IMG/VR virus record: IMGVR_UViG_3300046832_002460
Length of the DNA stretch: 15,960 bases
Source: a virus
Strand: one strand, 5' to 3'
This document shows positions 3,070-3,913 of the stretch, piece after piece (position 1 is the stretch's first letter; each line of letters begins with the position of its first letter). A program made the position numbers and the translations under genes. The notes beneath the pieces are model-generated. The model did no database searches. It saw only the letters and a list, made by a program, of their open reading frames with translations, and was not told the origin of the DNA.

Positions 3070-3816
3070 TCAGATAATACGTTTGTGTGTTTTGATAGAC
3101 CATTTTTCTTTAATTATCCAACCACTATTACCTGAGTAAAACTGTCTGCCATTAACTCCGAGAGAGGCCAAAGTTTTCTTCATATGAGTAGTCTCTAATT
3201 GCTCATGAGTTTTTGTATTGTATAAGATTGTGTGAAATTTGGGTCTCTCTTCACCTGCAGTTGGGCTGTGTTTGGCCAAGGTTTCTCTACGTTTTGCTCG
3301 CTGTTCTTCAGTAAGATTCATTTTGGCACCAATAGGTTTGCCTGCATTTTTGCTCCTTCTGGTCTCAATCATTTGTTCTATAGATGACCTAGACCTAGGC
3401 TTACCTTTATTATGCGCGGGTTGCCCCCTTCTGCGAGTGTTGGCGGCTATTTGGGCCGGAGAGATCTTTCCTTTGTGTGACTCGCTCAAAGCCTTGATAT
3501 TCTCTGATTTGATTTTCTCATATTCACCAGCCGAAACTCGATATCTATCTCTCTGGTCTTTTGGGCCGATCATTCTCCATAGAGCATGAGTCATCTTGTG
3601 CTGATAAGAGCCGGTTGTAAATTTAGTCAGCAGTTTATGCACCAAAAAATGTTCTCTTCCAGTTAGAACAACAATATTGTCTGGCTCATTATTACCACCA
3701 AGGGACTTGGGAATGATATGATGTTTCTCTCTATAAACATCACCTTGGATTATACGTGATTGAGCATGGGCAATCAGATTGATATACCATGTGAGGTATT
3801 TGTTGTTGACGAACAT
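3070..3816 (-). CDS. HNH homing endonuclease (HNH_3 family) with NUMOD-like C-terminal DNA-binding repeats, 248 aa
   Basis: The HNH motif is EKHHIIPKSLGGNNEPDNIVVLTGREHFLVH. GK(I/P)S...HNKGK repeats follow. The RBS is AGGAG 5 nt before ATG at 3816. Confidence 0.85.
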   Translation of the reverse strand: MFVNNKYLTWYINLIAHAQSRIIQGDVYREKHHIIPKSLGGNNEPDNIVVLTGREHFLVHKLLTKFTTGSYQHKMTHALWRMIGPKDQRDRYRVSAGEYEKIKSENIKALSESHKGKISPAQIAANTRRRGQPAHNKGKPRSRSSIEQMIETRRSKNAGKPIGAKMNLTEEQRAKRRETLAKHSPTAGEERPKFHTILYNTKTHEQLETTHMKKTLASLGVNGRQFYSGNSGWIIKEKWSIKTHKRII

Positions 3817-3839
3817 GATGACTCCTGTTATATATTACG

Positions 3840-3876
3840 TGTGGGACAGCCCGGAGCACTCCGAGCCGGGTTTTGA
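3840..3876 (+). repeat. Conserved 5'-flank element of the HNH genes, copy A: GTGTGGGACAG + GC hairpin CCCGG-n11-CCGGG + TTTT
   Basis: It is about 85% identical to 11281-11313 upstream of the second HNH gene. The stem is kept by a C-to-T change that gives a G-U pair in copy B. Confidence 0.6.
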
Positions 3877-3905
3877 AGAGGTATCAGATCTTCAATTACC
3901 ACTGA

Positions 3906-3913
3906 TATTTATA
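3906..3913 (-). promoter_or_regulatory. TATAAATA late-promoter box on the minus strand, ~90 nt upstream of the HNH start
   Basis: The plus strand reads TATTTATA at 3906-3913. The same box is found upstream of the second HNH gene at 11346-11353. Confidence 0.4.

Follow-up and report, generated by a model that had tools for sequence, protein, structure and literature searches.

A two-hairpin cassette with facing late-type boxes and a co-evolving Shine-Dalgarno copy precedes free-standing endonuclease genes of uncultured phages

Two Mob-like homing endonuclease genes on the minus strand of a 15,960-nt viral sequence (IMG/VR record IMGVR_UViG_3300046832_002460, here called the window) start behind the same short flank, which raises the question of what this flank is and what it does for the genes that it precedes. 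The problem is a general one: a free-standing homing endonuclease has to be expressed enough to spread yet stay harmless to its phage, and its control outside T4 is largely unknown. Homing endonuclease genes (HEGs) of T4-type phages are expressed from late promoters and controlled by RNA structure (PMC2988022), and cyanophage S-PM2 has NATAAATA late promoters as well as an antisense RNA, CfrI, opposite a homing endonuclease gene (PMC2984593).

Anatomy of the cassette and its late-type box

The two genes are HNH-A (3070–3816), whose 248 aa product matches phrog_655 (E = 1e-35) and Pfam HNH, and HNH-B (10527–11258), which carries an in-frame TAA at 10770–10772. An initial annotation of the window had located a short element in front of both, and it lies where that annotation placed it. 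In the window, exact matches to GTGTGGGACAGCC are confined to these two sites (3839–3851 and 11281–11293), and the full element, GGGACAGCC(C/T)GG..CTCC(G/A)AGCCGGGTTT, occupies 3843–3873 and 11285–11313. Chance is excluded as its origin by the 40 unique homologues of the cassette that were found outside these two sites. The evidence also supports the proposal that the flank is a shared functional element and not duplicated junk.

The conserved unit exceeds this element, since it extends to the start codon, includes a second hairpin that differs in sequence between the two copies while having the same shape, and features the motif ATTACC after that hairpin. On the endonuclease strand, the ∼100-nt module reads nATAAATA, 5 nt, GGTAAT, a hypervariable hairpin (H2), a near-invariant hairpin (H1), CUGUCCCAC, UAUUUAY, the Shine-Dalgarno sequence (SD) and ATG. 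Copy A runs on the minus strand from the start codon of HNH-A (3814–3816) through the box (3814–3913) and scores 94 bits with covariance model R1 at 3807–3915, while copy B, which aligns with it, spans 11256–11353 on the same strand (start codon at 11256–11258) and scores 115 bits at 11249–11355. The Rfam 15 covariance models gave no match at 3800–3920 or 11240–11360, even at E ≤ 1, and none in the window. A tRNA-like structure or minihelix formed by H2 and AUUACCA was ruled out, as the H2 loops do not resemble T-loops and neither a tRNA nor an Rfam match was obtained.

The upstream end of the module is TATAAATA, which does lie on the minus strand upstream of both HNH starts, at 3906–3913 and 11346–11353, as first described. 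It belongs to the conserved element: 36 of the 40 unique cassettes have nATAAATA at this position, and the spacing of the box to GGTAAT is fixed at 5 nt in all family members inspected. TATAAATA occurs four times in the window against 0.28 expected, a count that none of 200 shuffles reached, and ATAAATA seven times against 1.74 expected. Six of these seven precede a gene start on their own strand by no more than ∼100 nt, and the seventh (1947, plus strand) is within a third endonuclease gene. An 8-bp TATAAATA (NATAAATA in cyanophages) directly upstream of a gene and with no −35 is the sequence pattern of a T4-type late promoter, so that this box is a putative promoter, with predicted mRNA starts at ∼3900 for copy A and ∼11340 for copy B. 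Promoters of the T4 late type are recognised by a phage gp55-type sigma factor together with gp33 and gp45 and start transcription ∼6 nt downstream. An alternative in which TATTTATA would be the UP element of a neighbouring sigma-70 promoter was ruled out because the spacing is fixed to the cassette and not to TTGACA, and many cassettes are not followed by a TTGACA.

The cassette family and the genes behind it

In viral and metagenome contigs, the family comprises 74 instances of the 40 unique versions. A comparison of the consensus cassette with GenBank phages gave no match even at E ≤ 1, so that the cassette is known from no cultured phage, and megablast of the whole window against the same phages (roughly 85% identity or more) gave none either. 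A strict cassette pattern was absent from 185,579 bacterial and archaeal genomes (GTDB). A first scan of the collections with a 14-base pattern returned chance matches only, and a protein-based locus search for relatives of HNH-A found two weak loci, neither of which has a cassette.

Wherever an ORF is present behind the cassette it is nuclease-like, and at least five unrelated nuclease types are represented: Mob-like HNH, classical HNH and HNH_3, GIY-YIG, DUF559/Vsr-like, TnsA-like and phrog_23051 proteins. The element had been viewed as a feature of two paralogous HNH genes, but it is specific neither to these paralogs nor to HNH genes. Simple duplication of paralogs is likewise ruled out because the cassette fronts unrelated nucleases and is conserved far better than the ORFs behind it. 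Three cassette types lack an intact ORF, and complete ORF-less cassettes persist between tRNAs in one group (L168, four contigs), which suggests that the cassette can function independently of an endonuclease. Cassettes are almost always oriented antisense to neighbouring tRNA arrays or genes.

Comparison with a homologous locus, L130, captured a replacement behind a fixed cassette. The copy A stretch is ∼89% identical to L130 as far as base 3816, at the ATG, where homology ends; it resumes at 3061, and the ORFs between these points differ. A remnant of a previous endonuclease gene lies at 2814–3061. This break behind a shared cassette is an exchange junction of unrelated ORFs, a trait of the promoter-early stem-loop (PeSL) motifs that mediate such shuffling in T4-like phages (PMC2839356, PMC4122927). 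The cassette could therefore be mainly a homology arm for swapping endonuclease ORFs, with its RNA folds secondary, and the presence of one cassette in front of unrelated nuclease families also speaks for this. Yet a homology arm needs none of the strand-specific G·U pairs, compensatory changes, always-paired hypervariable H2 or SD copy described below, and we consider it improbable that recombination is the main role of the cassette; such a role would more likely complement regulation than stand in for it.

Two strand-specific folds and a copy of the Shine-Dalgarno sequence

The two hairpins evolve differently. H2 (TTGAAGA/TCTTCAA at 3873–3895 in copy A, CCTGTTG/CAACAGG at 11314–11334 in copy B) has 36 different sequences among the 40 unique cassettes, all of which fold at the same position with 6–9 bp, and two-sided changes affect seven of its eight pairs. 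That shape and not sequence is conserved fits a 5′ stabiliser, and the predicted mRNA start is itself paired (GGU/ACC) in the consensus fold.

H1 is near-invariant in sequence, and its pairing register differs between the strands, each register having its own strand-specific G·U pairs and covariation. The sense register of copy A (3847–3868, minus strand) pairs CGGCUCGGA with UCCGGGCUG over 9 bp, including two G·U pairs, and its counterpart in copy B (11289–11308, minus strand) has 8 bp. The plus register pairs AGCCCGG with CCGGGUU in copy A (3848–3874, plus strand) and ends in a T-run at 3871–3874, as a candidate hairpin and terminator of an antisense RNA; in copy B it spans 11290–11313 on the plus strand, with the T-run at 11311–11313. 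Across the family, the sense register is canonical in 92% of pairs on the sense strand against 71% on the plus strand, whereas the plus register is canonical in 96% on the plus strand against 74% when mirrored on the sense strand; slid-register controls reached 71% at most. One plus-register pair varies between G-C (17), A-U (10) and G·U (2). The observed value for the sense register was reached by 5 of 2000 shuffles (controls over the two registers, 5/2000 and 1/2000), figures that treat related cassettes as independent and in which the absolute excess over shuffles is small because most H1 columns are invariant.

These registers separate two claims made about the hairpin. A C-to-U change had been read as compensatory in the plus-strand stem, where it is in fact one-sided (C-G to U·G); it is two-sided (C-G to U-A) only in the other register, that of the minus-strand mRNA. 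The second claim was that on the plus strand the hairpin and its U tract form a terminator. That register is conserved together with its T-run and shows G-C to A-U covariation, but as a terminator it is weak, with a 5-bp core, a loop of 8–12 nt where an intrinsic terminator has 3–8 nt, about −6 kcal/mol and a T-run of 3–6 (mean 4.1; only 3 in copy B). A terminator scan listed copy B only, as another pairing of the same stretch (11295–11314), and antisense transcription may continue into H2 and the tRNA genes beyond it. Neither hairpin has a proper U-tract behind it on the sense strand.

The loop of the plus-strand hairpin, at the apex of H1, repeats the SD of each gene together with its flanks, and the two co-evolve. 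The longest string common to an apex and its own leader averages 6.76 nt, against 4.56 ± 0.23 nt for permuted leaders (0/5000), and duplexes between the plus-strand loop and the SD average −11.4 kcal/mol against −7.7 kcal/mol when permuted (0/5000), related cassettes being counted as independent in both statistics. Unusual SDs (GGUG, AGAG, CAGGAA and UAUAGAGGAA) are mirrored in the apex copy, and in most cassettes the identity begins exactly at the stem-loop boundary of the plus hairpin. In copy B, the apex CUUGGAGCC (11297–11305, minus strand) has CUUGGAG in common with the real SD region of HNH-B, CUUGGAGAU (11263–11271, minus strand). In copy A, the apex reads CUCGGAGUG on the sense strand (3857–3865) and CACUCCGAG as the plus-strand loop, the real SD region of HNH-A is ACAGGAGUC (3820–3828, minus strand), and the match in this clade is weak, at GGAGU only (5 nt). 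An upstream ORF that would follow the SD copy was ruled out by the absence of a start codon at a usable distance.

One candidate role for such structures is a T4/Aeh1-style arrangement. The ribosome binding site (RBS) would be hidden in read-through transcripts and freed late in infection by an embedded late promoter, and in its classical form this arrangement has TATAAATA and hairpins in front of HEGs (PMC2988022, PMC2677866). Sequestration of the RBS in the minus-strand 5′UTR, for which folding had been proposed as the check, is at odds with the anatomy: the SD is outside H1 and H2, ∼25 nt downstream, folding revealed no long-range pairing that includes it, and both hairpins lie behind the box, which makes them part of every transcript that starts from it. 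Pairing between the 3′ arm of H1 and the SD is weak (about −5 kcal/mol) and unspecific, and a switch built on this alternative pairing was rejected as not cassette-specific (−5.1 vs −4.8 kcal/mol, with 493 of 5000 permutations as good). This reading is already contradicted by the anatomy and is barely tenable.

Several features can be accommodated on the sense strand only, as a promoter with a 5′UTR in which stabilisation of the 5′ end or binding of a regulator would fall to H2 and H1, the SD copy would serve as a ribosome standby site or as a decoy, translation would be enhanced by the AU-rich UAUUUAY and the plus-strand features would be by-products. The sense register, in which G·U pairs are strand-specific and several changes two-sided, the paired mRNA start, the behaviour of H2 as a shape-only stabiliser and a slightly better mean folding energy (−9.7 kcal/mol on the sense strand vs −8.8 on the plus strand) are all consistent with this. 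However, it leaves the kept plus register, with its excess of canonical pairs and its G-C to A-U covariation, unexplained; a decoy for the invariant 16S anti-SD needs neither gene-specific flanks nor unusual SDs; intramolecular alternative pairing is not cassette-specific; and the leader motif is more than AU-rich, being an exact reverse complement of the box core. We regard a sense-only function as possible, if unlikely. An antisense RNA that would restrain the endonuclease is the best explanation of the co-evolving SD copy.

A candidate antisense RNA and related systems

Because UAUUUAY is the exact reverse complement of the ATAAATA box core, a second box in the leader faces the first. Most of the 40 unique cassettes have a TAAATA-type plus-strand box, which is a full nATAAATA in 15 of them, and GGGAC follows after 6–8 nt in 35 of 39. 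As with the sense box, its role as a promoter is predicted from its sequence and position. In copy B this box is AGTAAATA (11270–11277, plus strand), with a predicted antisense start at ∼11283. In copy A its position is occupied by the TATATA of TTGACG-N17-TATATA (3806–3834, plus strand), which had been annotated as a consensus promoter for an antisense RNA. The sequence is present, but its TTGAC coincides with HNH codons 3–4 (Val-Asn), its −10 lacks the final T and a promoter scan did not list it. Nor does a promoter of this type generalise: a −35-like TTG at 17–18 nt occurs in the window-related clade only and in none of the divergent members, so a family-wide −35 was ruled out. The plus-strand signal across the family is instead the second TAAATA-type box, degenerate in copy A. 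Within the window clade this box is AGTAAATA, or TTATATAT in copy A, and its strength as a promoter is doubtful because both depart from nATAAATA.

The convergent layout recurs without the H1/H2 cassette at the third endonuclease gene (1296–1970, minus strand). Upstream of this gene, TATAAATA (2027–2034, minus strand) is followed by a different 5′ hairpin, and AATAAATA (1946–1953, plus strand), within codons 6–9, faces it.

The initial annotation further held that the antisense RNA would cover the RBS. Its predicted start is downstream of the SD complement, which leaves the SD and start codon uncovered, so the SD would be reachable through loop complementarity only. The mechanism that we propose takes this into account. 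The cassette would be a portable, self-contained unit for the expression and restraint of free-standing HEGs, which sit backwards within tRNA arrays or gene blocks in a group of uncultured large phages. The T4-late-type box (nATAAATA, without −35) would start the endonuclease mRNA at GGUAAU, and the 5′ end would be locked at once into H2, GGU pairing with ACC; the sequence-conserved H1, an AU-rich leader, the SD and ATG would follow. The second box, of the same kind and located between H1 and the SD, would start a short plus-strand RNA at GUGGGACAG, with its 5′ end 5–8 nt past the box (about 3840–3842 and 11283). This RNA, of roughly 30–40 nt, would fold in its own register (AGCCNGG/CCNGGUU) ahead of the T-run, and its 8–12-nt loop would be complementary to the SD and flanks of its own gene, which is possible because the H1 apex copies the SD region. 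By pairing with the SD, it would limit translation of the nuclease, cassette by cassette. A possible GUGG/CCAC closing stem has too little independent variation to be judged, and the GTGG that both predicted start regions contain is a simpler account of it.

We give an even chance to the general form of this proposal, in which the flank supplies a promoter and a 5′UTR and a short convergent antisense RNA pairs through its loop with the SD; that the RNA exists, terminates and represses translation is inferred from sequence. A fuller version is put forward tentatively, with confidence well short of even. Here, each cassette would encode a late antisense RNA of ∼30–40 nt whose loop is a programmable anti-SD seed, matched to its target via the duplicated SD. 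It would thus be an orthogonal brake for each HEG that travels with the promoter and survives ORF swaps, and H2 would diverge rapidly, which would prevent cross-talk or recombination between the cassettes of one genome.

The plus-strand box might instead face outward for the benefit of the surrounding genes, restarting tRNA transcription cut by the insertion, while antisense read-through across the endonuclease gene is halted or attenuated at the plus hairpin with its T-run, and the cassette is kept as damage repair. The location of cassettes in tRNA arrays, with the plus strand co-directional with the tRNAs, would agree with this, as would the persistence of the ORF-less L168 group cassettes between tRNAs, and in T4 some HEGs are known to provide host genes downstream of them with promoters (PMC2988022). 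However, both downstream tRNA-like genes have a strong sigma-70-type promoter of their own (3916–3943 and 11363–11391), copy A has an additional GATAAATA at 3926–3933, and restarted transcription gives no reason for a hairpin loop to co-evolve with the SD of the endonuclease. We judge this role to be distinctly unlikely.

Whatever its mechanism, the cassette is one recognisable control module that at least five unrelated families of nucleases have in common across many large uncultured phages. It can be used as a sequence tag to locate such genes and offers experiments a defined object. It also features an unusual pair of properties, in that the same 30 nt fold differently on each strand and that an SD copy co-evolves with the real SD. 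If the antisense model is true, it would be a compact natural design of orthogonal and modular translational control that is dedicated to selfish nucleases, and its regulatory parts would be retained at the locus through the turnover of the selfish ORFs behind them.

Among known systems, the HEGs of T4 and Aeh1 (I-TevI, segB and mobE) also feature TATAAATA directly upstream and an RNA structure in the 5′UTR that limits nuclease expression (PMC2988022). In these genes the hairpin contains the RBS and has the late promoter embedded in it, whereas the SD of the cassette is free and its box stands 5 nt before GGTAAT, ahead of both hairpins; the cassette also adds an opposite-strand box and the SD copy, and is one sequence family across many nuclease types. 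The metagenomic ‘fractured gene’ loci (Dassa et al. 2009) likewise have free-standing GIY-YIG and Vsr-like genes that bring a hairpin and TATAAATA (PMC2677866), but with spacers of 27–51 nt, on the host-gene strand and with a single hairpin, a distinction that is drawn from their published description. PeSLs are comparable in that they are short and conserved, join a promoter to a stem-loop and lie at the borders of ORFs, where one ORF can be exchanged for an unrelated one (PMC2839356, PMC4122927). They fuse an early sigma-70 promoter to a terminator stem-loop and accompany assorted small ORFs, whereas the cassette, which is tied to nucleases, combines two hairpins and an SD copy with a late-type box on each strand.

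CfrI of S-PM2, a T4-like phage with NATAAATA late promoters, is also an antisense RNA opposite an HEG; it has been observed experimentally (PMC2984593), whereas the cassette RNA is predicted. At ∼225 nt it links psbA to the endonuclease gene, and it has not been described as a portable conserved cassette. CfrI and the cassette have no sequence relation. The RNA-OUT/RNA-IN system of IS10/Tn10 has convergent promoters at the 5′ end of the gene for a mobile-element enzyme, and its antisense RNA, RNA-OUT, is a short and stable stem-loop that pairs through its loop with the region of translation start. The cassette resembles it in its convergent boxes and in a predicted stem-loop RNA, in a covarying plus register, with a loop complementary to the translation start region. 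RNA-OUT overlaps the start region directly, whereas the predicted cassette RNA would reach the SD via a duplicated copy of it.

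Gene content of the window and its endonuclease genes

The window appears to derive from a large phage, as yet uncultured, with unusual cargo. Its plus strand encodes a major-vault-protein-like protein (7879-10449), with Vault_3 and MVP shoulder domains, whose only relatives among GenBank phages are in 462-735-kb 'uncultured phage' records (37% identity), as well as a saccharopine-dehydrogenase/homospermidine-synthase-like enzyme (4678-6081) and a TilS-like PP-loop protein (7317-7919), while a PTH2 peptidyl-tRNA hydrolase is encoded on the minus strand (12989-13456). Strong sigma-70-type promoters are found on the plus strand. 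The three endonuclease genes all lie on the minus strand, and a plus-strand promoter driving an unusual tRNA-like gene diverges from each of them. HNH-A (3070-3816) and HNH-B (10527-11258) encode Mob-like HNH homing endonucleases (phrog_655, E = 1e-35 and 1e-42, respectively), and the product of the third gene (1296-1970) features zinc fingers and an endonuclease-like C-terminus. HNH-B has an in-frame TAA at 10770-10772 (-), after codon 162, past which same-frame similarity to intact relatives runs down to ~10527; the gene is probably decaying, despite its intact cassette.

Transfer RNA genes with structured anticodon-loop inserts of ~48-57 nt lie at 1044-1181, 2082-2222, 11409-11530 and 3960-4049 (+), and at 7977-8101 of a related contig (L142). 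The two Leu-like genes combine a cloverleaf with a Y-shaped insert (z = -3.3 and -4.0), and the gene at 11409-11530 corresponds to the uninterrupted tRNA(CAU) of L124 plus 48 nt inserted within the anticodon. ARAGORN called none of the four insert-bearing genes of the window, and the inserts are too short to be group I introns. An RtcB ligase is encoded on a related contig. Three further contigs carry tRNAs with anticodon CUA, labelled Pyl by ARAGORN (L137 4235-4309, L145 2438-2508 and L152 4060-4135); such tRNAs would suppress amber codons, a hint of recoded stop codons in related phages. Two further RNAs are a permuted, alpha-proteobacterial-type tmRNA gene, next to a GIY-YIG gene that has a cassette, on a viral contig of 465 kb (L123 4742-5104, -) and a skipping-rope RNA within a phage tRNA array (L127 1893-1999, -).

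A conserved cassette with two hairpins and facing boxes

The initial annotation described a shared hairpin and late box ahead of HNH-A and HNH-B, together with a plus-strand promoter for a short antisense RNA. All of the elements that it listed were found where it had placed them, and TATAAATA occurs four times in the window (0.28 expected), three times upstream of the three endonuclease genes. The observation is confirmed, and its interpretation is sharpened and partly supported. Three features had been overlooked: a second hairpin, H2 (3873-3895 and 11314-11334), which is fully paired in both copies with a different sequence in each, a conserved ATTACC directly after it, and a constant 5-nt spacing between ATTACC and the box. 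On the endonuclease strand, the consensus of this control cassette (copy A, 3814-3913; copy B, 11256-11353) reads nATAAATA, N5, GGTAAT, H2, A-ACC, the near-invariant hairpin H1, CUGUCCCAC, N, UAUUUAY, Shine-Dalgarno sequence (SD), N5-8 and ATG.

A first scan with a specific pattern retrieved two viral contigs and 24 genuine metagenome loci, and a second scan, in which H1 was left unconstrained, yielded many more and far more divergent copies, bringing the family to 40 unique versions in 74 instances. A covariance model trained on the first 20 cassettes recovers members at 54-117 bits. The consensus had no match among 50,697 GenBank phage records, the strict pattern had none among 185,579 bacterial and archaeal genomes, and no Rfam family matched within the window.

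H2 is a shape-only element: 36 different sequences each form 6-9 bp, two-sided changes affect seven of eight pairs, and H2 differs even among otherwise near-identical cassettes (copy A, L130 and L129). H1 is conserved in sequence, and folding places it in a different register on each strand, with similar mean energies (-9.7 and -8.8 kcal/mol). The stem proposed initially, AGCCYGG / CCGGGUU, forms on the plus strand only, whereas the mRNA strand forms an 8-9-bp stem, CGGCUYGG / CCRGGCUG, with two G·U pairs. On the plus strand, the C-to-U change that had been read as compensatory creates a one-sided wobble; a true C-G to U-A exchange between copies A and B is found only on the mRNA strand. Both registers are maintained: with related sequences counted as independent, as in all of our cassette statistics, the sense register (8 bp) is 92% canonical on its own strand and 71% when mirrored (5/2000 shuffles reached the observed value), and the plus register (7 bp) is 96% versus 74% (1/2000), while slid controls gave ≤71%. 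Covariation is present in both registers; one plus-register pair is G-C in 17 cassettes, A-U in 10 and G·U in two, and the closely related L204 and L209 differ at it.

UAUUUAY, in the leader, corresponds to the box core in reverse complement. Most of the 40 unique cassettes have a plus-strand TAAATA-type box, positioned 6-8 nt before GGGAC in 35/39, so the cassette has two convergent boxes ~85-90 bp apart. The plus box is a full nATAAATA in 15 cassettes, including five with an exact TATAAATA, and is suboptimal in the clade of the window. The TTGACG-N17-TATATA promoter proposed initially is present as the copy A version of this box, but its -35-like TTG, at 17-18 nt, is restricted to the window's clade and found in none of the divergent members. 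The third endonuclease gene has the convergent layout (TATAAATA at 2027-2034 (-) and AATAAATA at 1946-1953 (+), inside the first codons of the ORF) with its own, different 5' hairpin in place of H1 and H2.

Across very divergent cassettes, GUGGGACAG on the plus strand and GGUAAU on the sense strand (3839-3849 and 3895-3900 in the window) are almost invariant; the two predicted transcripts would start in these regions, and a promoter or initiation requirement is a possible reason. Elsewhere in the window, TATAAATA at 580-587 (+) lies exactly 5 nt upstream of an ATG at 593 and could give a leaderless mRNA, and GATAAATA at 3926-3933 (+) lies within the spacer of a sigma-70-type promoter (3916-3943) ahead of a tRNA-like gene, which suggests overlapping early and late promoters.

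Replacement of the ORF behind the cassette

Every ORF behind a cassette is nuclease-like, and the types are Mob-like HNH, small classical HNH, HNH_3, GIY-YIG (SegE-like), DUF559/Vsr-like with zinc fingers, TnsA-like and the phrog_23051 'RDH...HPANC' type; an intact ORF is absent behind three cassette types. The cassettes lie within tRNA arrays or blocks of replication genes, in large phages with topoisomerase II, ribonucleotide reductase, DnaB-like helicase and RtcB, and the endonuclease genes are almost always antisense to their neighbours. 'Solo' cassettes with no endonuclease ORF occur between tRNA genes (L168 and three further contigs; L134 2149-2250; L138 2530-2631) and are of two types. 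One, to which the L168 group belongs, is complete and has H1, H2, the two boxes and a leader resembling an SD; the other is truncated just 3' of H1.

The ~89% identity between the window and L130 runs from the downstream gene across the cassette, ends at base 3816, where the ATG begins, and picks up again at 3061; in between, the window has the Mob-like HNH gene and L130 a DUF559-type gene. Window positions 2814-3061 share 88-94% identity with L130, L129 and L153 and are the remnant 3' end of a gene for a DUF559/Vsr-like endonuclease, left when the HNH-A ORF displaced that gene behind the same cassette. These homology breaks and the remnant indicate that the cassette stays at its locus while the ORFs behind it are replaced.

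A copied Shine-Dalgarno sequence and its proposed partner

The apex of H1 repeats the SD and flanks of its own gene, for example CUUGGAG(U/A), UCUGGAGAA, UUCGGAGAAC, UACGGAGA, UAUAGAGGAA, UCGGUGAA, CCAGUCAGAG and CAGGAA. The match between apex and leader averages 6.76 nt within a cassette, compared with 4.56 ± 0.23 nt when leaders were permuted (0/5000), and is just 5 nt in copy A. In most cassettes the identity starts with base 4 of the 5' arm on the sense strand, exactly where stem meets loop in the plus-strand hairpin. Pairing between the loop of this hairpin and the SD is cassette-specific (-11.4 versus -7.7 kcal/mol, 0/5000), whereas an intra-mRNA switch, in which the H1 3' arm would pair with the SD, is not (-5.1 versus -4.8 kcal/mol, 493/5000). 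A plus-strand RNA is the simplest partner demanding that both sequences stay identical.

We propose that the sense box drives an endonuclease mRNA starting at GGUAAU, whose 5' end H2 would protect; the consensus fold pairs the GGU at the predicted 5' end with ACC, which would give the mRNA a base-paired start. The plus box would drive a short RNA with its start at GUGGGACAG and the plus-register fold, and transcription would end at least partly at the T-run, the plus hairpin being a predicted weak terminator (~-6 kcal/mol, T-run of 3-6). The loop of this RNA may then pair with the SD and limit translation. Since late-type boxes work without a -35, every control part could fit upstream of the ATG as a portable module. 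Contrary to the initial proposal of an antisense RNA covering the SD, an RNA confined in this way could not overlap the SD and would reach it only through the copied sequence.

In logic, the system nearest to this model is IS10 RNA-OUT/RNA-IN. No description of the cassette was found in the literature searched. Homing-endonuclease genes of T4 and Aeh1 have a late promoter with a hairpin hiding the ribosome-binding site (PMC2988022); in contrast, the cassette has neither its SD nor its promoter in a hairpin, the two defining features of that control. Metagenomic 'fractured gene' endonucleases have short 5' hairpins with TATAAATA (PMC2677866), PeSL motifs are points of ORF exchange that combine an early promoter and a terminator (PMC2839356, PMC4122927), and cyanophage S-PM2 is reported to have the CfrI antisense RNA opposite a homing-endonuclease gene, as well as NATAAATA late promoters (PMC2984593). 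The cassette is a new variant among known homing-endonuclease control elements, and its model yields clear experimental predictions.
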